DNA of 64,000 bases from Xylographa opegraphella (lineage: Eukaryota). The position numbers were made by a program, and so were the translations under genes. Shown here one piece after another: positions 8,449-57,942 of the stretch. Position 1 is the stretch's first letter. Each line of letters opens with the position of its first letter. Location of the stretch: positions 434,001 to 498,000 of the forward strand of contig JALDZX010000008.1 in assembly GCA_022813865.1 (NCBI GenBank), given 5' to 3'. The notes below the pieces were generated by a model. That model did no database searches. It was not told the DNA's origin and saw nothing but the letters and a program-made list of their open reading frames with translations.

Positions 8449-8490
8449 AGAGATGGCAGAGATGGCAGAGATGGCAGAGATGGCAGAGAT
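8449..8490. repeat. 9-bp tandem repeat (AGAGATGGC, about 4.7 copies) just upstream of the SER3 ATG
   Basis: Directly visible: agagatggc agagatggc agagatggc agagatggc agagat. Confidence 0.9.
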
Positions 8491-32949: not shown

Positions 32950-34365
32950 CTACCGATCCGTCGACACCTGATCGATATGTATAGTCTTGAGAATCGCCGG
33001 CTTCTCCTGCACGCGGACCGCAGCCTCTTCCCCGACCTCGAGGTCCTGAAAGTCCTTCGTGCCGAGGTGCAACTCCGACTGGTGGGCGCCGACGTTGGCG
33101 AACGCGAGCGTGTCGAGCTCGCGGTCCATTTCAACGTAGTCTTTGCGCGAGCGCGAGTGCAGGCCCTTGCTGTTCGCCGTCGTGAAGGCGTTGGTGTGTT
33201 GCGGGGAGGAGTCGTTGTAGGCGAAGAGGCGGGGGAGTACCGGGAGGCAGCAGACGACGAGGCCGCTGGAGATCTCGGCGGTGCTGGGAGTGAGGTTAGC
33301 GGGGGAAAGTGGGCGGAGAGGGGGTTAGGGGTGGGACCTACGCCCATAGAGATACTGGCAGTAGGGCGTTTGTGACGTCGGGATTTGGGACGCTTTGGAC
33401 GCTGTAGATCAGCCGCATGACGCTCGAGAGGCAGGCGCTGGAGTTTTTGTTAATGGCAGCAGTGCGAGGTAGCTCGGGAGCGAGACGTACAAGAGACCGG
33501 ACGCGAAGATCATCGATATCCCTATCTTCTTCTTGATTGGCGCCTGTAACTTCCAGATGAATATGATCGGCAAGGTAAGCATGAGAAAGTCGTCGAAAAC
33601 GTTAATCACCGAGGATGCAATGAAGGATCGTTCGGCATCATAGCAACTCCCTGGAATCGTAGGGTTCCAGATTTTCTGCCGTGGTATGCACGCGAATATG
33701 GTGAGGAACAGATAAATGGTGAAGAAGAGAATGTTCAGTGCGATGATCAGGTGGAAGATGTACCACCGACGACTTTTCTTGCTCGTGACAAATATTTGGA
33801 CGAGTTGTAACAGGATCGCAACCTTGGTAAACAGAATCGCGGGCATGTATACAATTTGCTGAATGTTGATCCACTGTTGCAATGTCAATATACGGGGGGC
33901 GCACTACAGTGGCTACACCAGTACCTCTGCGAAATGGGCAAATTGCTCTGGCAGCTCATCCCATAGATGGAGCCCGATTCCGAAGCGGAGCAATTGGAAA
34001 GCAATCGCGACGAGCACAATGAAGAAAAACTGTTGACATATCAGCAGTGCCAATAGAGTGTCAGTCGGTATCGACTCGTACCCATGCTAGGAGACATATA
34101 TCTGCAGGCACTGGTCAGACTCCGGGCCTTGGAATATATATCAAGCCGGTGGATACGTACAATCTACCAAAGTGAACGCTTTGATGAGGACCAATCTGAC
34201 GTACAGCCGCAACACGATCAGGACTGACGGGACGATCAGGCAGACCAGATTTCCAGCAACCCAGACTGTGCTGTATGGGTTCACCGGATTCACAGGATCT
34301 GCAGTCACGCCGGGTGGGGCGGGCAACACGCCCACTGGTGAGGGAGTCGGAGCAGCAGCTGACAT
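32950..34365 (-). CDS. PTH11-like (fungal rhodopsin-domain) integral membrane protein
   Basis: APPGVT N-terminus, LRLYVR, FGIGLHLWD, TKVAILLQ, CIPRQKIWNP, LPIIFIWKLQ...KK. Exon boundaries are approximate. Confidence 0.8.
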
Positions 34366-37138: not shown

Positions 37139-38335
37139 TCACCCTCCACGCACCCTTCCCATCTCCCTTCCCATGCGATAATGCCTCCCCACAACCGCAC
37201 TCAGCTCCACCTCGGCCTCAAACAAGACCACGACATCCGACCCCCCGAACTGGAAATATGCCAACTCCTCCCCCTTGCGCAACACGACCCCCACCTCCGC
37301 CGTCAGCACGACCGACGACACGACCGCCATCCCGACCGGCAACACAGCCACCAGCCCCCTCGCCGTCTCGAGCACCACGAGGCCCCTCGCCTGCACGAAC
37401 TGGTACCCGGTCTCGTTCGGCGCGTCGAACTCCCTGCGCTTGACGATCTTCTGCTTCGGCTGCTCCAGCACCTGAGCGGTCTGCTCGAGCGGCTCGTCCG
37501 CGCTGCCGATGTCGCGGACCTCGATCTGCGCGTAATGCTGCCCGAGGATGGCCCTTGCTTCCAGCACGCGCCCACCGAGCGGGGCGTGCACGCGGTGGTA
37601 ATCGTTGGTGCCGAGGTAGCCGTGGATCCAGGTGCCGCCCGCGAAGCGCTCCGAATAGGGGCTGTCGGCTAGCAGCTCGCTGATGCGCCACGTGAGGGTC
37701 TTGAGCGTGACGGTCGCGGTGGGGGAGATGGCGAACTGGCCGTTGTAGGTCCAGTCGGCGGGGCTGCTGATGGCGGCCGGGTGGTCGGCGATGGGGCGGT
37801 AGCCGGGCTTGACGTGGCGGGCGAAAAAGTCGTTGAAGGTGCGCCAGCCGCCGCGGGGCTCGAGGTAGTCGTTGAAGTGGAAGGTGGGCGTGCTCTTGAA
37901 CGTTTCGAGGGAGGTGGCCGTTAGCGATTCTGGCGTGTCCATGAAGGCGCCGATGGCGCGGCCGTAGCGAACGATCCAGGCCGAGAGCCAGGAGAGGGGG
38001 CCTGACGAGGAGGGAGTGATGGGGCTCTGGTAGGGGAGTGTGGACGGCTGGTCGAGAACGAAGTAGAATACACCGAATTGGTTAAAGATGTCTTGGGCCT
38101 GGACTCGTTCGCTGGGGATCCAGATCAGAAGCGAGTTGATGAAATCGAGGTAGTCCGTGAAAGACTGGATGTTGGAGAGCTCGTCCATGTTGTATGAACG
38201 GATGGTCTCGATGGCTTTCTCGAAATCGACTCTTCGGTCGTTGTCTGACTGCACCCATTGCTGGAGCTCCTGGACGATGGCTTGATATTGAGGAGTCGCA
38301 GTGGGTCGCCTCGAGATCCAACTCCACAGCATCAT
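37139..38335 (-). CDS. Phosphatidylserine-decarboxylase-family pyruvoyl enzyme (substrate uncertain)
   Basis: TFNDFFAR, SPAD, DYHRVHAP and the autocleavage motif FQFGGS. No C2 domains or mitochondrial leader evident. Confidence 0.85.
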   Translation of the reverse strand: MMLWSWISRRPTATPQYQAIVQELQQWVQSDNDRRVDFEKAIETIRSYNMDELSNIQSFTDYLDFINSLLIWIPSERVQAQDIFNQFGVFYFVLDQPSTLPYQSPITPSSSGPLSWLSAWIVRYGRAIGAFMDTPESLTATSLETFKSTPTFHFNDYLEPRGGWRTFNDFFARHVKPGYRPIADHPAAISSPADWTYNGQFAISPTATVTLKTLTWRISELLADSPYSERFAGGTWIHGYLGTNDYHRVHAPLGGRVLEARAILGQHYAQIEVRDIGSADEPLEQTAQVLEQPKQKIVKRREFDAPNETGYQFVQARGLVVLETARGLVAVLPVGMAVVSSVVLTAEVGVVLRKGEELAYFQFGGSDVVVLFEAEVELSAVVGRHYRMGREMGRVRGG

Positions 38336-39012: not shown

Positions 39013-40281
39013 ATGCTGCAGTCGATGCAGTCAGATACGCGGTACTCTCTTGTCAGCTCAGATGATAATAACGAAATACCGATCGAAAAACCATCAGATG
39101 GTTTCCTCAAAGAGCTGAAAAACAAGATCAATAGACCCAAGCTTGTTTTCTGTGGTGTCACCTGCTTACTACTCGGCTTTGCGCTCGGTCTCCTAGCAGG
39201 CAGTTTTGACGTTCGTGCTTTCATTCGCAATACCCCTAGTGGAACTCTATCAGAATGTCTGAATCCCGCAAGTCGTCGCGAGTGGCGAAGCTTGAGTAAA
39301 GCCGAGAAGCACGATTATATCAATGCCGTCCAATGCCTGAGAACAACACCCTCACGCTTGGGCCTCAATCAATCACTTTATGATGATTTCCCATATGTCC
39401 ACAACAGCGTCGGGGGATACTGTACGTAGTTCACTTTATGAGCCACTCGACTCACACTAATACATACTCAAACCACAGCTCATGGTTCGGCCGCTTTTCT
39501 TGCTTGGCACAGATATTTCATACATACATATGAACAAGCACTCCGCGAGCAATGCCAGTATCAAGGTCATTTGGCGTATGTATATACCTATGATCCTTGG
39601 CGTCAGCTACTCACCGTGATACAGTTACTGGAATTGGGGTCTCGACTGGGAAGACGTGACACAGGCACCTGTGTGGGACTCCGAGACCGGCTTCGGTGGG
39701 AACGGCGACCCCAACGTTGGCGAGTCGATTGTGAAAGGTCACTGCGTCGTCGATGGTCCCTTCGCAATGCTCGAAGTTCTGTATCTTGACGACACACTCG
39801 AACCACATTGTCTGTCACGTGGATTCGAGAGCGACGTGGGTCTTGAGCGACAGGGTCAGCATATACGACCGGAAGCCTTAGAGAGGTTGCTGTTGCTCGA
39901 TGATTATGATGCTTTCAACATAGGATTGGAAGATTCCGCGCATATAGCGATCCCACGGACCATTCGCGGAGATTTCTCGCTGTTCACTGCCCCATATGGT
40001 ACGAATCCCTTCTTTTCATCTGCACTGACAATTAGAGTCAAGCTAAGGTCCAACCAGATCCGGTATTCTTCCTGCATCATACACAGTTGGACCGGCTATG
40101 GTGGACATGGCAGCGTAGAGACCCGCAAAAGCGGATATGGCAGTATAATGGTGTGACAGCTCATGGCTCGAAAGAACCAGCATCACTAGAAGATAAGATC
40201 TTGATGGGAGGATTGGCGCCGGACATTGAAGTGTCCGAGATTATACTTACAGAGTCGGATTTGATGTGTTATTGGTATTGA
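39013..40281 (+). CDS. Tyrosinase-family di-copper protein with N-terminal TM anchor (3 introns)
   Basis: RREWRSLS. Spliced CuA HNSVGGYSHGSAAFLAWHR, YWNW, and CuB region AHIAIP...DPVFFLHHTQLDRLWWTWQ. TM segment LVFCGVTCLLLGFALGLLAG. Confidence 0.9.
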
Positions 40282-40764
40282 AATCTTTCGTCCCCGGTGC
40301 GAAAGACAAACGCGGTCTAGTCACTCGGGAGAAATGATTGTCCGAGATATCGCTCTCGTTTTTGACGAACTTGCCTTTGATTATTGACTCCTCCTTCAAT
40401 ATTTCGTGGTGATAATGCAACTGAGCTTCTTTAACTTGACTGCTGCTACTCTGGTATAGACTTGTGCCGCAGCGGTGTCTACCTTAGTGTCGAGAATCGA
40501 GAAAACGGTCATGCAGTGCTCATGCACGCTGTTTTGGTCTCACATCCTGTCCCACACTAAGGCACTGCGTCATGGTGGACACGGTCGACGTCTGGCTACA
40601 TCGGTTACACTCCCTCGTTACAGTCGTTACAGTGCTTATCTCTTGCACATCATTCGATCTCCTCACCATGCATGATGTTGTACTTACTATAGTAGTACGG
40701 AGCTACGACAGCACGAACCTCTCAATGTCTGTTTTAGTGGGATTGCAGGGCCCGTGTGACCGGC

Positions 40765-40901
40765 TGCTTCCTGGTAGCTTCCGCAACCTCGGCACGAGCC
40801 GCCACTCAATCCTAGCGGTAGGATCCCGGTCTTACGCTATTCCATAAAGAGACCGGATACTCCGTGCTCACTGGAAGCTTCCGAGACCACGGCACGAGCC
40901 G
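40765..40901. repeat. Imperfect 37-bp direct repeat, copies offset by exactly 100 bp
   Basis: tgcttcctggtagcttccgcaacctcggcacgagccg versus tgctcactggaagcttccgagaccacggcacgagccg (31/37 identical by manual count). Confidence 0.75.
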
Positions 40902-42080
40902 TGAGTTGGTTAGGCCGCGAATCCCTGTCATGAGGCAGGGATCGGGCCTCTGTCCGGACAACCACGCCGAATGTCAATCAGAGGTAGCGCAACTGTACTT
41001 CAGACGGCTTGGAAGTGAAGAGGAACGTTGGGTTGTGGACCTCATAATTTCTTGAATCGCTGCCATTGCTATTTTCCTGCTCAACGAGTCAATCCCTTCT
41101 AGTGCTTTCGTGTCCGTACAACAGGTCATCTATTGTCTTCATCTGTATCCTTCGCAGCGTGAAAGACTGAGTAGGATATTGATCTTTGGTAACACCGGTC
41201 TTCGAATGAAGTACGGTGCAGGATATTGCGCGATACAGCACACCATCCCGTTCAAGATAATCCTCCTGTGCTCTGCGTCGACAAGGTTCAGGGGTGTGAC
41301 ACTGCTCGCTCTATGAGCTCGCTCGTCGCTCGTAATGCCTCTCTGTCGAAGCTCCGATAACCTTTGCCGGTCTTGGTCTGTTACCTACTTGCTCGAAGAC
41401 AACGATGGGCCTGGTGTGGAGAAACTATGACGATAAGATGATACAACGCACTTGCTGTTGCATCCTTCACCCTACTATTGTATGGGCCGGTTTTAGAGTA
41501 CACAGCCTGCCAGCGCTTTCAATGACTTAGTCTTATCGGCCTGAGTCGGCTCGATTGTACCAAATTCTGCGATCGCTGGCTCAGCTTAAGCACCTCTTGC
41601 CTAGAAGCTGCTTAAACTTGAAGGTTCTAGGCTCGACGGTCTTGGCCATTGAGGGTGTTTTTGAAGGGTGGGCTGATTAAGGTCCATCACACCAGTTGCA
41701 GAAGAAGATGACGTCCCTGTGCTCTATTGCAGCCTCAAGACTGGCTATCATCGTCATGCCGTACAATGGCCAAGCGTCCTATCCTGCCCAATCATGTACA
41801 TGCGACATCCTCCTCAGCAAGTGTGCAGATGTGGTGTAACACAAACGAGCCATTAGTGCGATCGTGGTTGACGATGGCGAGGTCTACCGTTATATATATT
41901 CTCTGTTATATCGTTTGTCTTGTAACTTCAGCGATATTCATTTCTTCGAGCAAGGATATCGAATCACTAACCTCGGCATCAAACTTACTAAACTGAATTA
42001 CTGTTCACGCATAGAACCTGAGCCTGCTTTCCTGATTCTGTCTCTTTAACAATCCTTGTCCTTTACCATTCTTCTTCACG

Positions 42081-42556
42081 ATGCAATATTTCAATTTCTT
42101 TCTTGTTACCTTTCTGGGCTATGCCGCATGCGCCCCGATAAGTATGTTGCGCGTGGTAACCCACGTAAACCATTCAGCTGATTGACGGCAGTCTTATCCG
42201 ATATGGCGCCTGACTATAAGCGAGAGATGACTGCAGATTACGAGGTCGCTCCGGACTATAAAAGGGATATGGCTGCAGACTACAAGAGGGAGATCACTGC
42301 GGACTACGAGGTTGCTCCGGACTATAAGAGAGATATGGCCGCCGACTATAAGAGGGAGATCACTGCGGATTACGAGGTTGCTCCGGACTATAAGAGAGAT
42401 ATGGCCGCCGATTACAAGCGAGAGATCACTGCTGACTACGAGGTCGCTCCGGACTATAAAAGGGATACGGGTGCAGAATACAAGAGGGAGATCACTGCGG
42501 ACTACGAGGTTGAGCCGGATTACAAGAGAGACATGGCTGCCGACTACAAGAAATAA
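42081..42556 (+). CDS. Kex2-processed repeat protein (KEP), a candidate RiPP precursor of 141 aa (intron 42142-42191)
   Basis: Exon 1 encodes the signal peptide MQYFNFFLVTFLGYAACAPI. A GTATGT...CAG intron joins it in frame to ILSDMAPDYKR and then alternating EITADYEVAPDY-KR / DMAADY-KR repeats. Ten KR sites plus a terminal KK. Confidence 0.9.
42200..42553 (+). repeat. Coding tandem repeat, 66-bp unit x5 plus a partial unit
   Basis: 22-aa unit DMAADYKREITADYEVAPDYKR with mostly synonymous differences between copies. Confidence 0.95.
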
Positions 42557-43954
42557 ACCAATATTTCAACTATAAGCTTGCTCCAGATTTTTGCAAAGGA
42601 ATTTGAGCAGATCATTAAGCAACGGATAATTTTAGTAGAGAACTGAGACATATCAAGAAGAATGGACTTTATAACTGTACTTCCAGCTCACTATGACTAT
42701 CTTCAATAAGCTGACGGGGGGGAGTGACAGCGGCCAGAATAGTGTCTGAGCATGCCAAGAATTCAACCACGAAGGCGTTCAAGCCCATGTCACCACGCGG
42801 CGATCCCAACAGCGGAGACGGCACAGCTTGAGCTTCTCGGCCAGAGGGCATTCAAAATACGGATCGACGCTTATCGGCTGAGGCTCACGGCTTTATATGA
42901 TACAATCAAATACGCGTTATTTAGTAATTTAACCGGCCCCGATAGAACATCATTTATAACGTTACGTATAACTGTTTATAGTACCCCTTTTTCCCCGCGT
43001 CGAACCAGCATTCTAAGTAAAGTTATGTCAATCAAAACCCCAAAACCAATTCGATATCAACGCTTGGAGCTGACCTAGCCCCAAGATACGAGCCGGTTCA
43101 CCGGCATAACTGGGACGGAGCCGGCCATAGGACCTAAGTGGATCGGCCCAAGATTGAGCCGTTCGGGAGCCATGTGCGGGCGGGACGGAAAATGGCCCCC
43201 ACTAAGTTAGAGCCCCGAACGAGCCACGGATGCCCCGGGGCCGCGGTCCTATTTACTAGTAGTGGGACGAAGCCGTGTATTTTACAAAGCAAGTTATTTA
43301 TGTCTTGGCAGTAATATTGAAGCGGCATGAGATCGCCTGTTACCCATGTGGCCAAGTCCAGCGGCACAGCATTCAAGAATCCTTCAGTATGGCCTTCCAA
43401 TCAACACTGCAGGTGGCGGCGCACACACCTTCTCGATATGGTGTGTTGCATTGATGAGAATCACTTTGCTTTTACTTGTATCCATGGTCGACGTCAAGGG
43501 TTTACAGCAAGACTATGGCATGACTGGCTCCTGTCGTAGCCACACACCTCGTCCCACACGTGCAGCTTGCAGGCAGCCCATATCCCAGTACTGGATACAC
43601 CAATTGAAGAACGGCATGACTGGCGAAGCCAGGTACTATTGAGCGGCGGAAGACTCTCATGTTATCCGAAGCGGGTTTTGGTGTCTCGGCTGTGCCGTCT
43701 TCGTCCCTCTGGGTATGCCGTCTCGTTCCACATGGACGAATTGTTGTCGTAGCCGGCGCCAACGCAACCGACTTTTATCTCTCGCGTTGCACAAGTGGAG
43801 AGTATGCAGGTCGAGATCTGCCGTACACGCCCACGTGGTTTTCCGGGCATATATTTACCTTTGTTATGGAAATATTATAGAAAAACGAAATCACAAGGCG
43901 ACAAAACGATAACTTTTTCTCTACAATCAACGGCTATTGGCGATACGGGGTATC

Positions 43955-46038
43955 ATGGATACGACCTTCAGCGACAGTGTAAGTCTGTTCCTCATATCGT
44001 CAGAGCTCCTGCTACGTCAGGGAGTTTTTACTCTGATGCCCCAATACTATTTAGCTAATATCTCTGGCAACTGTAGAGTCTTCATGAACTTGAAAATGAG
44101 CTTCACACCGAGGTCGTACCTGGCACGGAGATCATGACCGATGTTGGATCACATCACTTCATCAAAAGCAAAGGCAATGCCACTGTCCTTGTTCCGCAAC
44201 CGTCGCAGGATCCTCACGATCCGCTGGTAAGTGACTATTAACTCTTGCATACACATCATAACTACTATATCATTTGGATAGAAGAAGTGGTCTGTATAGC
44301 TGATAATATTCTGCCTACAGAATTGGAGCCCAATATGGAAGTTCTCAGCAATGGCATCTACCTCGCTGGCAACGTTCATGTTGATACTCTCACCACTAGC
44401 CATCGCACCCATTTTCCCAGACCTCATTATGGACTTCAACTCCGATTTGGCTGGCGTAGTACAATTTACGGGAACAACCATTCTTGTTCTGGGATTTGCA
44501 AACTTCTTATGGTCAGCCACATCCTGCTCCAAGCTCTCTCCTGCAATCAAGGAGCGTCCAGATACTGATTTGTTACTGTAGGATCCCTTTAAGTGACGTA
44601 TATGGAAGAAGATTCGTTCTACTGGCGTCGCTTCTGGTCCTGATAGCAAGCCACATCTGGCGTGCTGAAGCCGGATCGTACTCAAGTTTCATGGGCGCCG
44701 CAGCTATCGCGGGAATTGGTGGTGCTCCTGGAGAGGTAATTCGATTGCGCACAAGGACCGGGGAGTCTCCGACTGACAACAAAATATAGGCTCTACAACC
44801 AATAATTACCACAGATGTTATGTTTTTGCATGAAAGAGGACTCTACACGACATGGTACTTTTCGATACTCTATGGCTCTACTATGGTATTGATTTTCAAC
44901 TATCGTTCTTGGATGCTGTGCTGACTCTTTTCAGCTTGGTCCAATTATCCAAGGAAGTATGGCTCAAGCATATGGATGGCGAAGCTTTTGGTGGCTCAAT
45001 ACGGGACTATGTGCCCTCGCCTTTGTCTTTGTTCTTGTGGGCTTTCCAGAGACGAAACATGTCCGTGTCTATCCAAGCGAGGCACAGAATGGTGCTCCAG
45101 CGTTTGTGACTACCGAGAAAACAGATGCGATATCCCACAAATCTGGGTCATCCGCCGTCGCAACGAGTAATGCAACACCAGTTCCAGCCTCCAATGCGCC
45201 GGATGATTCCCATCTCGGTAAAGGCAGGCCAAGTAGGAGTCAATGGAGGCTTCTGCAACCGGAGAGTCACCCTTTACGACCACTCGCCTTTGGTCTCTAC
45301 CTCCCGTTCAAGTTGTTCTGCTTCCCAATCGTCGTTTTCGCCACCTTTATAGTCAGCTTCAGCAGTACCTGTTATCTGATGATCACGTTTATCCAATCTC
45401 AAGCCTTCGCCGTCCCTCCGTACAGCTTCAACCAGGAATTCATCGGATTTATGAACTTCGCCTCCCTCATTGGTGCCCTGATCGGTCTGTTCACTGCTGG
45501 CCCCCTGAGCGATTGGGTTAGCGCCAAGCTGACCCGACGAAACAATGGCATCCGAGAGCCGGAAATGAGACTTCCAACTATGATACCTTATGTCATAATC
45601 ATGCTTCTCGGAAACTTTGTTGTAGCATTTGGTTTGCAGAACGATTGGGACTGGAGGGTGAGTTCATTTATTACCCCATTCCAATGTCCGGTAACGAAAA
45701 GCTTCTGACTCCATATGTCGCAGGCCATCGTCGTCGTAGGTTTTGGCTGCGCCGGTATTCAAATCGCGTCACTACCAGCTATCGCCTCCACATACGCAAT
45801 CGACTCCTACAAGCCGGCTGCGGGTAGTATTTTCATCGCCATCACTATCAACAAGAACCTGTACGGCTACGGGGTTTCGAAGTTCATCACCCCGTGGGTG
45901 ATACAGTCAGGCTACGTGCCTCCGTTCATGACGAACATGTGTCTGTTATTCCTGTGGGTATGCTGCGGCGCCATCTTCTGGGTCTGGGGCAAACGTTTCA
46001 GGACGTGGACTGCGAAGAGCAGTATCCATCGCCAATAG
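43955..46038 (+). CDS. MFS transporter (HOL1-like), multi-exon
   Basis: VVPGTEIM, LVPQPSQDPHDPL-NWS, YGRR, GWRSFWW...FPET, NGIREPEMRLP. Confidence 0.87.
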
Positions 46039-46516: not shown

Positions 46517-48015
46517 ATGGCCTCCTCGCAGCACCCCGCAAGCGGCGGCACCCTTCTCAGCCAGCTCTCGGCCGTGGAGATTCCGTCGGGGGAGACGCTG
46601 GATGAGCGTACACGCAGGGAGGCGTTGGCGGTTGCGAAGGGCATCGTCGACGCGCTGGAGAAGCCGGAGGAGGTGGTGATGCGGTATGCCAACGAGGTGA
46701 GGGCCCGTCCGTTCCGCTACGCTTCCCTCCCTCTGCCGAAGGTTTGGATCTCTCTCGCGACCCACACGGTGCTGAATATAGGCTACTCTGCAGATAATGG
46801 CGCACCGCGTCAGCCTGCGGGTCGGGGTCGAGCTCGGGCTGTTCCGCATGCTGGTGCAGCGGGGCGTGACGCCGCTGTCGGCGAAAAGGATGGCGGAGCA
46901 GACGGGTGCGGAGCTGTTGCTTGTTGGTGAGTGGGTGAGAGAGTGTGTGTGGGGGGCAGACGTGGCATGAAGGGAAGGGGAGACCGATGTGCTGATGCTG
47001 CGGGGTGGTTTTTTTAGTGAGGATCATGCGCGTTGTGTGCGTTATTGGCTTTGCGAAGGAGGTGGGCGTGCAGAGCTATGTGGCCACGCGGCTGACGAAG
47101 GCGATCACGTCGCCGGCGATGGAGGGTGCGATGATGATTTGGTAAGGAGGTGCTCTTTCGGGGCGGATGGTGGATGGGTGCTGATCGAGCGCGGTAGCCA
47201 CGACTATTCCTCTACGTGGCAGCTGCCGCAGTACTTCCAGGCCCATGGCTATACGTGTCCGACCGACAGTTCGGACTGCCCGTTCCAGTGGGCATTCAAA
47301 ACGAAGCAGACGTATTTCGAGCGCATCCACGAGAGCCCGGAGGCGATGAAGGCGTTCAACAATTTCATGAAGGAGATTCGCAGCACGCGGAAGTTCTGGG
47401 CCGATTGGTATCCCGTGGAGGAGGAGATAATCAGTGGGTTTGCGGGCGGGCCGGAGGATGTGCTTCTCGTGGATGTTGGGGGTGGGAACGGGCATGATTT
47501 GGAGTCCTTTCTTGCTTCTTTCCCGCAGGCCAAGGGCCATCTCGTTTTGCAAGACTTGCCGGGGACGATTGAGAACCTCAAGCCCAAAGATGGGATTCGA
47601 GCCATGGCTCACGACTTTTTCACTCCGCAGCCTGTCAAAGGTGAGCAGGTCGTTATGGTGCTATTCGTCGAGATATGCTGACTGTTGGGCAGGCGCCCGT
47701 GCCTACTACACCCATTTCGTGCTGCACGACTGGCCCGACGAGAAGTGCCGGGTGATTCTGCGCGAGCTGATGGCCGCCATGAAACCGGGATACTCGAAGC
47801 TCGTCCTCAATGAGAGTGTGCTTCCGGATATCGACTGCTCGCCGTGGTTCGCGACCAACGATATCAACATGATGGCCATCCTTGCCGGCATGACGCGCAG
47901 CCAGTCACAGTACGTGGAGCTGGTCGAGTCGGTCGGCCTCGAAGTGGTGAAGGTCTGGCGATCGCCGGATGCGGAGGATGCGGAGGGGGTGATTGTAGCG
48001 GTCTTGAAAGCGTAG
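46517..48015 (+). CDS. SAM-dependent O-methyltransferase (methyltransf_2 type with winged-helix N-terminus), multi-exon
   Basis: LLVDVGGGNGHDL, LQDLP, HDFFTPQP, YYTHFVLHDWPD. Confidence 0.92.
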
Positions 48016-48109: not shown

Positions 48110-48844
48110 TCATTCGTCAAACTTTATCAGCAACCAGACATACTTCTGCCCATTCTCCCCCCCGCCCTTGCCGAAATCAAAGATCTCGCTCCCAATCTCC
48201 TGCATCCCGGCTTTGAGATACGTCCTTAGGCCCATCGGCGTTGCGATCGTCCACACCCCCTTGATTCTGCCCGGCCGGGCCTTCGCATCCACCTTCGCTT
48301 GCTCAATCCCCCACCGCACGAGCATGCTCCCCAGTCCGCGCTGCTGAAACTCCGGCAGCGTAGCCAGGGCATCCAGATACCAGTAATGGGAATCACGGTC
48401 ACCGCCCATAAGCGCCTCAGACCACCCCCCCACCAGGGTATCATGCAACCTCCTCATCAGCACGCGCGCATCCCGGTTCTCCACTGGCGCGTCCTCGATC
48501 GCAGGCACCATAGGCCGCGACTCCAGAGCCGGTTTCGTCGCGTTAGCCGCGGGCGCGCACCAGCAGGCCACGGCGACGACTTGAGCGGCGGAGCCGTCCG
48601 CGGGCCGGTAGACGACTTTGCGCCAGTGCCGGTCGGCGTTGCTATCGCCCCGGCCTTCCAGCGCGTTGCTCATCCGCATCCGCTTCCAGGCGCGGGCGAC
48701 GGCGCGTGTTTCGGCAGTTGTGAGCGGCGCGGAGGCGGCTTGGCTGATGGGGTTGCTGGCGAAGGCCCGCTCTTCGATGTCGAGCATGGCGTCGACGTCT
48801 GCGAGGGACATGGGCTGGATCTCGAAGGGCGGTGGGGACACCAT
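48110..48844 (-). CDS. GNAT-family acetyltransferase
   Basis: WYLDALATLPEFQQRGLGSMLVRWG (motif A, QxxGxG) and ATPMGLRTY. Confidence 0.85.
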   Translation of the reverse strand: MVSPPPFEIQPMSLADVDAMLDIEERAFASNPISQAASAPLTTAETRAVARAWKRMRMSNALEGRGDSNADRHWRKVVYRPADGSAAQVVAVACWCAPAANATKPALESRPMVPAIEDAPVENRDARVLMRRLHDTLVGGWSEALMGGDRDSHYWYLDALATLPEFQQRGLGSMLVRWGIEQAKVDAKARPGRIKGVWTIATPMGLRTYLKAGMQEIGSEIFDFGKGGGENGQKYVWLLIKFDE

Positions 48845-49352: not shown

Positions 49353-51464
49353 CTACGCATCCGTATACTTCATCAACCCCACCTCTAGCGCCTTGATCTG
49401 CAACGCCAACAACCGCGAATAGTAGCGGCACAGAGCCAAGTTCCCGCCGAAGAACCAGAAACCTTCATGCCCACTTCTCCTCCAGATTGTCCGCAATTCG
49501 CCTTCCTGATCATAGCCCCATACATCACCCACCTGATCTGCCACCTTATCCCCAAATATCTTCCGTGCGGTCTCCCGCATATTCTGATACCCAGTCGCAA
49601 ACACGATCTCATCCGCTTCGATTTCCTCCCCGTCCGCGAACGTCATGCTGTGCTCGTTTACGTGCGAGATCTCTTGCCCTTGTTTGACTCTGATTTTGCC
49701 ATCTGCGATCAGCTGCGATGCTCCAACGTCAATATAGTAGCCGCCTCCACGATGCATATACTTCATCCAGAGGCCCGCGCCATCGGGGCCATTATCGAGT
49801 GCGAACCCTGCAGCCTGCAGGCCCTGCAGGAGGGTTGCGTCGCGGCGGGTCGTTTCGCGTGTGGCGTCGATGTGGAAGCGCTTGAGAACGGGACTGGGAA
49901 GGGAGTGGCTGATGAGATCTGCGTCCTCAACGGGAGGACCGCCTTCGCAGTAGACACCTGCCATCGTGACGTCAATGAGCGCGCGGCTGGTTACCACGAG
50001 GGTACTGCTGCGCTGCACCATCGTGACCGCATAGCCGTGCTCGAGATAGTCCTGTGCAATGTCATGTGCGGAGTTGCAGCTACCGACTATGATGGCTTTT
50101 TTCCCGGCGCCCGCGGATTGAGGGCCGACGAATTGCGAAGAATGAACGAGAGGGCCATGGAAGGAGGAGAGGCCGGGGATGGTGGACGGGAAATTCGCTT
50201 CGCCGCTGGCACCAGTGGCTTGGATTATATGACGTGGGTGGAATGTCCCTATCTGAGGTCAGTGGGAAGCAAGCGGATGATGGTGATATACGTACGGATT
50301 GACTTCTTTCCATCCATGTCTCGCGTAAGCGTTACGGTCCAGTGCTTGGCTTTCTCATTCCATATTGCTTCTGTGAGTGTGGTGGAATTCCACACGTTGA
50401 GCTCCATGGCCTTGACGTATATCTCAAACCACTCTGCAAGTTTGTCCTTCGGAGTGAATACCTGGATGAATTAGTATCAGGACGTCTATGAATGGAGAGC
50501 CCGGAGAACTTACAGGCCAGTTCGGTGGGAAGTCTAAATATGGCATGTTGTCATACCTTTGAGACTCGTTCAGTATTCTGTAGTGCTATGGATTGGGGCC
50601 GCAGATCTTGAGCTTACCACACCGCATCATGGAGAACCAGCTGGTGATATCTATTGCGCCAATTGTCTCCGACATGAGGGTTTTGATCGACCATGAGAGT
50701 TACAATGCCTAACTGCTTCAACCGTGCAGCTGCTGTCAAGCCCCCTTGGCCAGAGCCTTCAGCGTGAAACGTCAGCTCTGTGTCTCCTTCCCACAAATAA
50801 TGGAAGACTGACCGACAATGATTACCGAGGGCTCAAGCCCATCCTCAAAATTCACTTCGGCATCTCTTCGTTCTTTCCAATTCTTCCTTCCAGGATGCGA
50901 ACCATGAATGACACCCGTTGGTCTCCGTTCCTCAATGAATTCTTCATAACCTTTCAGTTCTTTCAGCGAGGTGAACAAAGTAAAAGCTTTCCATTTGCCC
51001 CCGTCGTCTGGATCTTGGACAAGCCTGACCAGACCCCTGCCTCTGCCAACGTCAGTTTCGACAGTGAGGAACGACTGGATGCCTTTCAGAGTTCCCCCAA
51101 AATCGACTGAGGCAACTGTAGGCTTTCCCACATAACTGGTCTGGTCAATAGCGAGAGAAGTAATTCGTGAACCCTTGCTCTGCGCTTTTAAGATAGATGA
51201 GATATTCTCCCGACCACTAAGGGTATGGAAGTCCCATGTCAGGCAAAGAAGATCCCTCCAGTATGATTCAGAAAGAAAGACCTTGGAGAGATCAGAAGCA
51301 CCACTTTGGAGATGGTCATTGGACAAAGAAAGCCATCCGGTGACTACAGATTCTGCGTCCAATTGAGATAAGTCCGTGGGCCTTGGGTAGAGCACTGGAT
51401 CAAGAGCGTGGGAGCCCGGTAACATGCGGTTTGACGATAGGACCTCCACTGCAGCCGTGGCCAT
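49353..51464 (-). CDS. Flavin-containing monooxygenase (class B, N-terminally extended type), multi-exon
   Basis: IVGSGQGGL FAD motif, GDNWRNRY...LHD, FHGPLVHSSQF, VGSCNSAHD, GGYYIDVG, FATGY. N-terminal YWRDLL domain. Confidence 0.9.
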
Positions 51465-52685
51465 GATGTAGACTCAGGACTGTATGGTAGCACGGCCAGT
51501 GAGCACTCCAGCGTGGCGTTGGTGAGTCCATTACTGAAATGTAGCGAGCGTGGCAGCCAGCGGAGCAATGACGAAATAAGGAAATCATCGCCTCGCCCTC
51601 ACAGAGCAGTTCGGAGGTAATCACGCATTGAATTATGCCGCGTCAACGGTTCTCACTTCCGTGGCGTGGGCCAGTCTCCTGGTCGAGCGGTTGTTGTGCC
51701 GTGCTGTGTATTACCCCACGGGATTGCCACAAAATGCCTTTATCCTAAAGCTACCTTAATCCTAGGTGCCGTGGGGGGCGGGACGGGAGTGTTTCCTAGC
51801 GCTTCGATAGTGTCAAGCCTGATCCGTGCATGGGACGATGACATCACTACGCTCGACCTCATCTCTCGACTTTCGGCCTTCAGCTGACAGTTTCGCCCCC
51901 ACTGGATCATCTGCCATTGCCTCAAGGATTTCAATCCTTCGCTGAAGCAGAACAAGGACCTCATAGGTCCGCATTCTAGTTCTGCAGCCATCCTTACTTT
52001 CATCGCCTCTCAGGATGACTGATGGATCCTCACACCATGACCATCACCGGGGCCACACTTTATTCAAGTATGCCTGCCCGTTGCAGTGTACGGGCATTTG
52101 ACTTGAGCTTGTTTGCTTTTATCGAACGAGTACCTGAGTGCTGGTCGTTGACGAGGACGAATAATTGCCATTGCGCCATACTTTAAACCTTGTTTACTCT
52201 CCTCGTCTAGACCCAACATACGAAGTATCGTCCAGCGTGTCGTACGACCGCTGTGCCACCTCAAGGCAGAGACGATCACTGCGGCCTCGTTACCATGCTC
52301 CTTCGCTCCTCCTCATGTAAGCCACTCGGCGTCATAGCCCTCTGAAAAGCCAGGATTCTGTTGGTTTTTGGGCAGTCCTTGAGCTGCGCGTGGTCGGAAC
52401 AGCAGGTCGCAGTTCTTTATCTGCTTGAAAGCTACCACACCACAGTAATAAACTGGCATCCCTTCGTGGCACAGCTGGTTACAGCTCTGGATTAACGCCA
52501 GTATGATTGACTGCCGGTACTACGATAATCGGAGCACTTCAATGGCCCACATAGAATTGTTCTGCGTTGCTGCATGCTTCCTTATTCTTCATTGTGAAAG
52601 ATCGCTTTGTTGCTAAGTTTTAGGGGCACTCGACAGTCTGTTTCTGTTTTCACGCAATCTCATTAAAGCGTCAACAAGTCTCAAC

Positions 52686-53989
52686 ATGGACAAAGGCCCT
52701 GTACCCTCCGATGGCGACGTGAGTATGCAAGCGGGTATTCTTGCTACCACCATCGTAGTCACTATTCTCGCAGATACCGTCGTTGCTCTTCGATTCGTGG
52801 TGCGAAAATGGATTGTAAAGAATATTGGCTGGGATGACTGGTGTATCCTTGGTGCAGTCATCGGCATCACAATAGGAATGGCCCTTGTCATCGTGCAAAT
52901 TTCTTATGGCTTTGGAAGACACAAATACTATCTTACACCGCACGAGCTGCAGGAGTTCCAGAAGTATTCATTTGGAGAATGGATACAGACATTTGCCACA
53001 CTGATGTGGACCAAGATCTCGATATGCTTGTTTCTTCTGCGGATTACCATCAGCAAAGCATTCATTCGTCCCCTCCAAGTTGCGATCATCATTCTAGTGC
53101 TAAGTAACGTTATTCTGACTGTCCTCTGGGCGGTTCAATGCAGTCCTGTTGCGCTGGCTTGGGATTTGACCCAGCAGGGCACTTGCTTCAGTGTGGCTCA
53201 GATAGACGATATTATTTTGGCTCAAGCTAGTAAAACAACACCTCTAAGCTGTGGGTACATTCAAGCTAACAATACCAAGTCATCTCGATCGTCTCAGACT
53301 TTTTCCTCGCCGCATTCCCTATTCTCATCCTTCGACACGTTCAAATCAATATACGGGTCAAAATCGGGCTGTGTCTACTCATGGGCATGGGAGTAATGTA
53401 AGTTGGACTCGATATACGATGGGTACTTACTCGTGACTGACTCATTCGAATAGTACTGGGTGTATCTGCATAGCTCGAGCTGTCCTTAACTGGCAAAATG
53501 ACTACAGCCAAGATCCGACCTGTAATCTGCTCCCCGACCCGCAACTATTTTCCCTCTTACTTCACCCACTAACCAATATCAGGGGTCAGTGTTCCAAATT
53601 GGTATCTACGGTCATGGGAAATCTGCGTTGGTATCATAGCCGCGTCCGTCCCTACGCTGCGTCCTGGCTACCTCTATATGCAAGACCGTCTCGTCGCCTC
53701 CTTCTCTTCCAAGGCCAGCTCTAGCGCTCCTTTTTCCAAGTCCAAAACACTTGTTCCGTCACCAGTAGCCCGCACGAAAGCCTCCAACCCCTTCAAGTCG
53801 TTTGGTACCAATACGTCGTCCACTACGGAGGGCAATTTCCTGCCGCTGCAAAACTTTGAGATTCGAAAGACTACAGACATTGATGTGGAAAAGAAATCGA
53901 ATTCGCGCAGTACCAGTGGGGCTTATAGACCACGGATTGGACGCACAGATTCAGAGGCGCATTTGAGGAGTGTAGAAGATATTGTTTAG
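52686..53989 (+). CDS. PTH11-like (fungal rhodopsin-domain) integral membrane protein
   Basis: LRFVVR...GWDDW, GFGRH, TKISICLFLLR, QCSPVALAWD, WEICVGIIAASVPTLRP. Confidence 0.85.
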
Positions 53990-56786: not shown

Positions 56787-57942
56787 ATGGAAAGCCAAGA
56801 CGCGCTCGACGCCTCGCCATTCTGCAACCCCCCAACCAGTGATGGGGAAGCGCCAGATAAGGCATGCGAGCAGCAGCGCCTAACATTCGCCACCGAGTTC
56901 GTACACCGGCTGCAGCGCGACGGATACGTGAGACTGCGCGGCCACGGCATCAGCGCCACGCAGATCTCGGAGGTCTTCCAAGCCGTGAGTCCCTTTCACC
57001 CCCCCCCCCCCCACCAACTCGCCACGCAGCCAAACGAAGCCAACGAAAAAAAAAACCCCCCTACAGCACAAAACATTCTTCGACCTCCCCCTCTCGCGCA
57101 AGCGCGAACTGCTCCACCCCGGCGGCGCCCGCCCCGCCCGCGGCTTCACGCCCTCGCACACGGAGAAAACTTTCCTCCACCTCCCGCACCTCTCGCGCGC
57201 CGCCCCCGACGCCGCCGAGCCGCGCGAGCAGTTCACGCTCGGCCCACCCACGGACGACACCTACCCGACCCCCTGGTTCCCGGCCCCGCACCTCTCGCCC
57301 GAGCACGCCACCCTGCTCACCTTCTACGACGCCTGCCGCACCACCGCCCTCGCCCTGACGCAAGCCCTCGAGCTCGGCCTCGGCGTCCGCAGCGGCACGC
57401 TGACGACGCACTGCGCGCCCGACGCGTCGGAGCTGACGCTGAACTGGTACCCGGCCGCCGCGCACGCGGCGCTGCAAGGCCCGCGCCTGCAGCGCATCTG
57501 GCCGCACTCCGACCTCGGCATCGTGAGCCTGCTGTTCCAGGACGGCGTCGGCGGGCTCGAGTTCGAGGACCGCGCCCGCGGCGGCGGCGGCGGCGGCGGC
57601 GGCGGCTTCGTGCCCGTGCGGCCGAGCGCCGTGCCGGGCGAGCTGCTGCTCAATGCGGCGGATACGTTGGAGCGCTGGACGAACGGCATGGTGCCGGCGG
57701 GCGTGCATCGCGTCGCGGTGCCGGTGGCGATGAGGGGCGGCGGCGGCGGCGGTGCGGCCGAGGGGGAGATGGTGCCGGGGAGGCGCTCGGTCGTGCTGCT
57801 GTACCGCGCCAGGGGGGAGGCGTCGGTGGCGCCGTTGCCGGCGTTCGTGACGCCGGACGCGCCGGCCCGGTTCGGGGAGATGACGGCGACGGAGTACTTG
57901 AAGGTGAAGAATAAATTGACGTTCGGGGACGTTGTGGAGTGA
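56787..57942 (+). CDS. 2-oxoglutarate/Fe(II)-dependent oxygenase (IPNS/DIOX-like), one intron near 56985-57066
   Basis: GYVRLRGHGI, LNWYP, HSD (HxD), LLFQDGVGGLE, LERWTNG, HRV, RRS (RxS). Confidence 0.9.
57580..57606 (+). repeat. (GGC)9 microsatellite encoding poly-Gly inside the 2OG oxygenase
   Basis: Directly visible. A second, shorter Gly run lies near 57735-57752. Confidence 0.9.

Follow-up and report, generated by a model that had tools for sequence, protein, structure and literature searches.

Does a run of repeated codons in the genome of Xylographa opegraphella belong to a gene for a secreted peptide precursor and, if so, to which class of fungal peptides would its products belong? 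The locus in question, positions 42081 to 42556, lies in a 64,000-nucleotide stretch of the forward strand (assembly GCA_022813865.1, contig JALDZX010000008.1, positions 434,001 to 498,000), referred to here as the window and used for all coordinates below. We consider it likely that the locus is a genuine gene with two exons that encodes a 141-residue Kex2-processed repeat protein (KEP) and is missing from the protein collection that we searched. What we describe is a new, conserved and poorly annotated family within the known, very large KEP class. Less certain is what becomes of the peptides once they are released, a matter that depends on how the neighbouring genes are read.

The original prediction had placed the true start of the gene at an ATG at 42081, upstream of the ATG at 42203 with which the listed open reading frame (ORF) begins, and had proposed a 61-nt first exon, a 50-nt intron and an in-frame join. 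All of these coordinates and counts were reproduced from the sequence, and the true start is indeed absent from the ORF track (Table 1). The predicted second exon joins the first in frame to the 117-codon ORF that carries the repeats (ATG 42203, TAA 42554-42556). The splice signals were judged by fungal consensus sequences; the CTGAT branch-like site sits 10 nt before the end of the predicted intron. If unspliced, the frame of exon 1 meets a stop after 34 codons, and the repeat frame is interrupted by a stop at 42179-42181, within the intron. Since both frames are closed there, the repeats can gain a signal peptide only through the 50-nt splice. The spliced product would have 141 residues with ten Lys-Arg (KR) sites and a terminal KK.

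That the repeat frame encodes protein is best seen from the way its copies have diverged. The 66-nt period of the array corresponds to 22 codons, that is, a 6-mer, KR, a 12-mer and another KR, and the array (42200-42551) is the sole long-period tandem array in the window. Among its five full units, third codon positions account for 14 of the 19 variable columns, far above what chance would give. Pooled over unit pairs, the proportion of synonymous differences (pS) was 0.61 and that of nonsynonymous differences (pN) 0.049, giving a pN/pS of 0.08 in the repeat frame; the corresponding ratios were 1.7 and 6.1 in the other frames of the plus strand and 0.15, 2.9 and 4.9 on the reverse strand. The DNA copies have thus drifted while the peptides stayed constant, which argues that the repeat frame is translated and under purifying selection. 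An Rfam scan of 40300-44200 gave no family.

KEPs are defined by two features, an N-terminal signal peptide for the endoplasmic reticulum (ER) and repeated units separated by Kex2 (KR) sites. As to the first, mean Kyte-Doolittle hydropathy was 1.22 over residues 2-20 of the spliced product versus -1.43 over residues 23-45, with which the scored N-terminal stretch of 45 residues ends, and the 20-residue exon-1 peptide has small residues at its end (A-C-A). Given the predicted splice, hydropathy and inspection therefore point to a putative ER signal peptide. As to the second, ten KR sites and the terminal KK bound eleven units. The KR-delimited pieces comprise EITADYEVAPDY in three copies, EMTADYEVAPDY, EITADYEVEPDY, DMAADY in four copies, DTGAEY and an N-terminal piece ending in DMAPDY, so that both the peptide list and the ten KR sites given beforehand were recovered exactly in the spliced product. 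Apart from the N-terminal piece, these are five 12-mers, which fit E-I/M-TADYEV-A/E-PDY, and the five 6-mers. Ten of the eleven unit ends read DY and one EY, and the residue that follows KR is D or E at all ten sites.

This layout suggests a maturation route of the kind known from yeast alpha-factor, whose precursor has a signal peptide, is cut by Kex2 after KR with an acidic residue likewise next to the site, and is trimmed by Kex1. The exon-1 peptide, about 17-20 residues of it, would take the precursor into the ER and then be removed; in the late Golgi, a Kex2-type protease would act on the ten Lys-Arg pairs, cutting behind each, and a carboxypeptidase of the Kex1 type would take off the basic residues together with the terminal KK. 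The products freed in this way and secreted would be eleven short peptides, strongly acidic and all ending in Asp/Glu-Tyr. For ER entry, cleavage, trimming and secretion alike, the proposal draws on the architecture of the protein and on the alpha-factor analogy.

Relatives of the protein came to light only with sensitive searches. With the repeat ORF as query, a word-index search of proteins 66-210 residues long gave no match at E <= 1e-3. When 1.84 billion representatives were searched exhaustively with HMMER, 90 matches at E <= 1e-3 came back, of which 18 were examined at the sequence level: three were relatives (P0076, P0074 and P0083), and the other 15 were unrelated repeat or low-complexity proteins, e.g. 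tetratricopeptide-repeat proteins with AVPDYRR. The remaining 72 matches were judged by a count of DY-dibasic motifs only, which was run over 212 proteins. A profile built from the three relatives and the window ORF, with which 8000 candidates were scored, then found five proteins at E <= 1e-3, with E-values of the relatives from 2.5e-45 to 2.1e-4. These are P0083 (132 aa), P0074 (a fragment of 70 aa), P0076 (83 aa; the NCBI hypothetical protein BDR22DRAFT_885246 of the lichen fungus Usnea florida), P0091 (207 aa, with a signal-like methionine at Met72) and P0092 (a fragment of 57 aa).

All five relatives are built of acidic units that end in DY and are followed by KR or RR. Taking the six proteins together, DY precedes 36 of the 38 dibasic sites; the exceptions are one EY and one FG, the latter in a fragment relative whose N-terminus is probably mis-called there. 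Unit interiors and lengths, by comparison, vary across the six proteins (5-20 residues). The Usnea florida protein keeps a double unit, ELTADY-TEADY-KR, where the window protein has EITADY-EVAPDY-KR, and the relatives carry a pro-region of 15-45 residues that is almost absent in the window protein. The predicted precursor thus has its place in a small family of uncharacterised proteins, with Asp-Tyr right before the dibasic site as the one invariant feature.

The relatives also speak to the N-terminus. The exon-1 peptide aligns with the hydrophobic N-termini of P0076, P0083 and P0091 (the last from Met72), in each case directly before the repeats, and shares seven of 22 positions with P0091, including a terminal A-P-I. 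This comparison covered three of the five relatives, with P0074 and P0092 left out, and provides independent support for exon 1 and the splice.

Searches for the peptides themselves agree with the view that the family is an uncharacterised one, as the original prediction had proposed: all five relatives from the profile search are uncharacterised, and the units match no characterised peptide in text searches of the literature and of the supplements of a published KEP survey, which hold accessions rather than sequences (Umemura 2020, PMC7329392). In the literature, the unit strings occurred in 12 papers, in unrelated contexts only (PD-L1 peptides, viral proteins), and nothing relevant was found on Kex2, DOPA or tyrosinase peptides, on the locus tag of the Usnea protein or on PDB 8ACS. 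An ESM Atlas search gave no usable match. A metagenome locus (L001), the one confirmed among 242 matches to a pattern from a two-sequence alignment, was rejected as a relative; the contig looks prokaryotic, and its lone ADYTDADY string is there by chance.

Why had the gene been overlooked? The neighbouring gene for a phosphatidylserine-decarboxylase (PSD)-like protein is present in the protein collection (P0093, 100% identity), and neither the 117-residue ORF nor the spliced form was found there by the word-index and profile searches. Because the neighbour is present and the precursor absent in searches able to find it, the precursor gene appears to be missing from the gene set, which bears out the suspicion of a hidden gene. 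The gene models of the relatives look wrong as well, in that P0091 has 71 residues before its signal-like methionine, and P0074 and P0092 are fragments that lack a signal peptide; these faulty models suggest that a first exon or an intron was missed in the relatives too. KEP genes easily escape notice; they are small and often carry an intron right behind the part for the signal peptide. The family would then be a conserved one that gene callers miss or truncate.

KEPs are the entry to most known ascomycete peptides of ribosomal synthesis and post-translational modification (RiPPs), such as ustiloxins, phomopsins, asperipin and epichloecyclins, and to peptide pheromones. The available parts of the survey, to which our statements on it are confined, record KEPs from 1345 of 1461 fungal genomes, 7878 in all or about five to a genome, and sort them into 838 types plus 2560 singletons (PMC7329392). 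A new KEP type is ordinary in itself, given the great diversity found there. A DUF3328/UstY gene lies near 22% of these KEPs, at a mean distance of 3.09 genes, and 78% have none (PMC7329392); the window protein shares both defining features and, like the 78%, has no DUF3328 neighbour. Units of the form x-x-x-A/P-D-Y matched no string in the survey, whose tables hold accessions without sequences and contain no Usnea or Cladonia entry, so that the protein may still belong to one of its 838 types (PMC7329392). Given its absence from the protein collection, the precursor could not be in that survey unless it had been annotated.

Yeast alpha-factor (MFalpha1) and the ascomycete alpha-type pheromone precursors follow the same maturation logic as proposed here. 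The units of the window protein differ from alpha-factor in having no X-Ala spacer dipeptides for Ste13 and no Trp or Cys, and in being far more acidic. The repeat ORF matched no Pfam family, hence neither MF_alpha nor MF_alpha_N, and none of the five profile relatives carries a pheromone name. On this evidence, the protein does not look like the precursor of an alpha-type mating pheromone.

Several points weigh against the KEP reading. The two-exon model, its splice and its expression are predicted from the DNA sequence alone, and the call of a putative signal peptide is based on hydropathy and inspection. The exact cut of this peptide is uncertain, as its best A-x-A site (A-C-A) has a proline next; a proline in that place disfavours cleavage by signal peptidase. 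Cleavage at the KR sites, finally, is deduced from the architecture. Set against the selection on the repeat frame, the coherent gene structure and the relatives, these points leave the KEP reading well supported in our view.

Less is settled about the fate of the peptides. Tailoring by the product of at least one neighbour of the precursor gene is conceivable, and we put it somewhat below an even prospect. If there is none, the acidic Tyr-ended peptides would act unmodified, as is assumed for most KEP peptides, be it as a signal, as a metal- or mineral-binding peptide or as an effector, and the neighbouring genes would be unrelated to them. We regard this as a serious possibility, short of a probable one. 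It accords with the large majority of KEPs that have no DUF3328 neighbour and with the proposal, in the available parts of the survey, that many KEP products are linear peptides (PMC7329392). The weakness of the evidence for cluster membership of the neighbours likewise favours it. However, it accounts neither for an Asp-Tyr that stays constant ahead of the cut site in units whose interiors drift, nor for the tyrosinase-like gene next to the precursor gene.

These two observations are the starting point of a more ambitious reading, in which the precursor is the core of a genuine gene cluster and the founding member of a new, UstY-independent class of fungal RiPPs. It extends the explanation given above rather than excluding it, and we entertain it tentatively. 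Gene content changes sharply at about 33 kb. The first 32 kb hold housekeeping genes (PAK-type kinase, RCC1, phosphoglycerate dehydrogenase, glyoxalase, Miro GTPase, arrestin, capping protein, ubiquitin hydrolase and Vps27); an island of transporters and tailoring enzymes typical of secondary metabolism follows. We searched the window with three Pfam scans, covering 139 ORFs of at least 110 aa from the whole window, 118 ORFs of at least 45 aa from 38.4-46.9 and 50.2-52.6 kb, and 149 ORFs of 50-109 aa from the rest of 32-60 kb. No polyketide synthase, nonribosomal peptide synthetase or terpene synthase was seen in the island in these scans, so that the precursor would be its only candidate core gene. 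Tailoring-type enzymes and two transporters of the major facilitator superfamily (MFS) are thus found together with no other core enzyme.

In such a cluster, the invariant C-terminal tyrosine would be the handle for the adjacent tyrosinase-like protein, which would be membrane-anchored and face the lumen and would oxidise or cross-link this residue. An O-methyltransferase, a GNAT acetyltransferase and a flavin monooxygenase would decorate the peptides; the neighbouring O-methyltransferase might add methyl groups at a later step and an MFS transporter might carry the products out, which would complete a RiPP-like pathway independent of UstY. The tyrosinase-like gene is directly adjacent to the precursor gene, and every unit ends in Tyr. 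Its model is intact, with four exons, 367-372 aa and GT-AG introns at 39422-39478, 39576-39624 and 39999-40042/40057. The protein has an N-terminal cytosolic tail, one hydrophobic span and the catalytic domain, a predicted type II anchor, and this layout would place the enzyme in the lumen, on the route of the precursor. That DY stays the same next to the cut site throughout the six proteins suggests that it serves for recognition. As far as the available parts of the survey go, only 4.3% of the 7878 KEPs have a tyrosinase gene within their 15 nearest genes, and in the ustiloxin and phomopsin clusters the tyrosinase gene is seven to eight genes away from the precursor gene (PMC7329392).

One hint from another genome points the same way. 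The PSD-like gene, which is possibly linked to the precursor gene, is divergent from the tyrosinase-like gene across a 677-bp promoter region. One homologue of its product, P0191 (54% identical), and the KEP relative P0074 are both ENA entries with an identical value, 52329 bp, for the length of the longest contig. This match is a single coincidence between the five relatives and the 120 homologues listed, and it suggests conserved linkage in another genome. As to the PSD-like protein itself, its best PDB matches are the PsiD-type L-tryptophan decarboxylases 8zia/8x4q (E about 2e-12). At around 50% identity, its family occurs in fungi (Aspergillus, Trapelia, Xylaria, Cadophora) and bacteria (Longimicrobium, Lysobacterales, Acidobacteria), and its nearest relatives are only 58% identical.

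A good deal counts against tailoring. Adjacency is the one line of evidence that ties the enzymes to the peptides, and conservation of the neighbourhood in the relatives is suggested by the P0074/P0191 coincidence alone. In the available parts of the survey, tyrosinase genes do not accumulate near KEP genes that lack DUF3328 (PMC7329392). The O-methyltransferase, the GNAT protein and the flavin monooxygenase have no signal peptide, which would put them in a compartment other than that of the peptides. In six candidate promoters, no word was shared beyond chance, and no 7-, 8- or 9-mer was common to at least five of them; the Pfam scans revealed no cluster-specific transcription factor. Pyruvoyl-type decarboxylases need a free alpha-amine, so that the PSD-like enzyme is unlikely to act on peptide C-termini; the wide spread of its family through fungi and bacteria counts here too.

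The tyrosinase-like protein raises a doubt of its own. Its CuB region reads A-H-I-A-I-P-R-T-I-R-G-D-F (AHIAIP at 39941-39955, with the Pro codon at 39953-39955), and the second histidine of what we take to be the H-x3-H pair of type-3 copper proteins seems to be a proline. Judged by this motif, the protein may lack one of the copper-ligand histidines. In the CuA region (SHGSAAFLAWHRYF) and in the C-terminal DPVFFLHHTQLDRLW, the sequence appears canonical. A search of PDB with the 47-residue CuB segment gave no match even at E <= 10, and the protein has a weak PDB match to catechol oxidase 4j3p/4j3q. If the CuB proline holds up, the protein may be something other than a standard tyrosinase.

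In its most specific form, the cluster reading would posit a new UstY-independent RiPP class of lichen-forming ascomycetes in which the tyrosinase-like enzyme acts on the C-terminal Asp-Tyr, yielding small acidic catechol-type peptides for MFS export. This version we think rather unlikely. The chemistry could be hydroxylation or quinone chemistry, followed possibly by O-methylation or cross-linking, and the products would possibly serve to bind metals or minerals or to signal to the partner organism.

A third reading leaves the protein uncut. A disordered repeat protein, acidic and rich in Tyr, would then leave the cell in one piece, e.g. a wall or adhesive protein whose tyrosines are cross-linked by the tyrosinase-like enzyme. 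Repeat proteins can remain intact, the 121 residues after the exon-1 peptide contain 16 Tyr, and the tyrosinase-like neighbour would fit. Yet a dibasic pair follows essentially every unit in six proteins, and the DY-KR boundary holds fast across units of differing length, which is the pattern expected of cleavage sites and not of a structural repeat. We therefore regard an uncut protein as improbable.

Closest to hand among known systems are the dikaritins (ustiloxin, phomopsin and asperipin types), whose tyrosine is cyclised by a UstY enzyme, to give a macrocycle closed by a Tyr side-chain ether, and with whose precursors the original prediction had drawn a link. So far as the sources at hand describe them, UstA and its kin resemble the present case in the signal peptide, the KR-delimited Tyr repeats and nearby genes for a tyrosinase, a methyltransferase, a flavin monooxygenase and an MFS transporter; they differ from it in the UstYa/UstYb (DUF3328) genes, of which the window locus has none. 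Flavin monooxygenases are presumably part of the ustiloxin cluster. The methyltransferase of the window belongs to the O-methyltransferases of PF00891, with MpaG' and LepI as its closest likenesses. Five gene types have been named for dikaritin clusters, namely an HXXHC DUF3328/UstY gene, a repeat precursor, a tyrosinase, a methyltransferase and a transporter or peptidase (Ding et al., as quoted in the available parts of PMC12048977). Four of these are present, namely a precursor with leader and repeated motifs, the tyrosinase-like gene, the MFS transporters and, as a tentative counterpart of UstM or PhomM, the O-methyltransferase, a tally that the cluster reading can claim as well.

What is absent from the window is a DUF3328/UstY oxidase near the precursor gene. 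PF11807/DUF3328 had no match in any of the three Pfam scans, and the string H-x-x-H-C occurs three times in six frames, once spanning a stop codon and twice with a stop within a few residues. In addition, the DUF3328 genes of the survey lie on average only some three genes from the KEP gene, and the units lack the Y-x-I pattern of dikaritin cores (YVIG, YAIG, YVIP), so that the earlier remark on the cores being unlike those of the ustiloxin and phomopsin type stands. Of the proposed link to dikaritins, the shared architecture of signal peptide and KR-delimited repeats is confirmed, while the enzymatic hallmark is wanting. With no DUF3328/UstY gene in the window, we discarded the dikaritin precursor as very improbable. 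The label of a RiPP precursor, which had been attached as well, could not be upheld for the gene itself, as it derives solely from the neighbouring genes.

Last, a decaying minisatellite or chance ORF would fit the other open frames across the repeat and an expression that is so far predicted, but the pN/pS of 0.08 with its third-position drift, the protein-level relatives in other genomes (one an annotated NCBI protein) and the coherent set of start, signal peptide, splice signals and stop make a non-functional element scarcely credible.

How the KEP gene relates to what is known from lichens can be judged from a 2025 survey (PMC12048977). In its available parts, the Parmeliaceae RiPP clans R1 and R2 are built around UstY/DUF3328 signature genes, R1 combining tyrosinase and O-methyltransferase genes and R2 carrying GNAT genes, and no repeat-type precursor was found in either clan (PMC12048977). 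Some of these accessory gene types are common to the window locus, and the family described here also occurs in Parmeliaceae, namely in Usnea florida. No FGE-sulfatase domain was found in the Pfam scans of the window ORFs; as it lacks both this domain and UstY, the locus is not a member of clan R1 or R2. The window locus does show that this part of the fungal tree has repeat-type precursors and that annotation can fail to reveal them; unannotated genes such as the present one may partly explain why the survey could find none in lichen genomes (PMC12048977). Beyond this, the invariant Asp-Tyr and the adjacent tyrosinase-like gene together offer a testable idea, that of Tyr-directed tailoring without the UstY enzymes that genome-mining rules require. 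If the peptides are unmodified, the gene adds one more to several thousand uncharacterised KEPs.

Table 1. Features of the precursor locus and of neighbouring genes in the 64-kb window.
Feature	Position	Strand	Remarks
Exon 1 (predicted)	42081..42141	+	61 nt; ATG, 20 codons (MQYFNFFLVTFLGYAACAPI) and first base of codon 21
Intron (predicted)	42142..42191	+	50 nt; GTATGT donor, CTGAT branch-like site, CAG acceptor
Exon 2 (predicted)	42192..42556	+	short linker, 11 units ending in D/E-Y with 10 KR sites between, terminal KK, TAA
Tandem array	42200..42551	+	Tandem Repeats Finder: period 66 nt, 5.3 copies, 84% matches
TATA-like element	41891..41899	+	TATATATAT; about 185 nt 5' of the ATG; possible core promoter by consensus resemblance only
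AATAAA	42552..42557	+	overlaps the stop codon; possible polyadenylation signal by consensus resemblance only
Tyrosinase-like gene	39013..40281	+	next gene 5' of the precursor gene, 1.8 kb away; PF00264 on three exon ORFs
PsiD/PSD-like gene	37139..38335	-	398 aa; Pfam PF02666
MFS transporter	44134..46038	+	next gene 3' of the precursor gene; PF07690 on exon ORFs; candidate exporter
MFS transporter	~35.2-36.8 kb		Pfam
O-methyltransferase (COMT/MpaG'/LepI type)	46517..48015	+	PF00891; PDB 8xte, E 2.5e-25; no signal peptide seen
GNAT acetyltransferase	48110..48844	-	PF00583; no PDB relative; no signal peptide seen
Flavin-dependent monooxygenase/oxidoreductase	49353..51464	-	Pfam FMO-like, Pyr_redox; PDB 8acs, E 1.6e-69; no signal peptide seen
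Fungal-rhodopsin-domain membrane protein	33412-33903	-	PF20684; flanks the enzyme island
Fungal-rhodopsin-domain membrane protein	52617-53393	+	PF20684; flanks the enzyme island
Short-chain dehydrogenase	~54.9-56.2 kb		
2-Oxoglutarate (2OG)-Fe(II) oxygenase	~57-57.9 kb		
Amino-acid permease	60-62.4 kb	-	
Amidase	window's end		

Two minor observations concern short repeated sequences. The 9-mer CTTCAGCGA occurs three times in the window (41926-41934, 43966-43974 and 51939-51947), in the promoters of the precursor, MFS and monooxygenase genes. As a shared promoter motif it was rejected: five of 100 shuffles reach three matches, and the likeness ends at 9 nt. Besides, the window contains short perfect tandem repeats, AGAGATGGC in 4.7 copies at 8449-8490 and GCG in 9.7 copies at 57578-57606.

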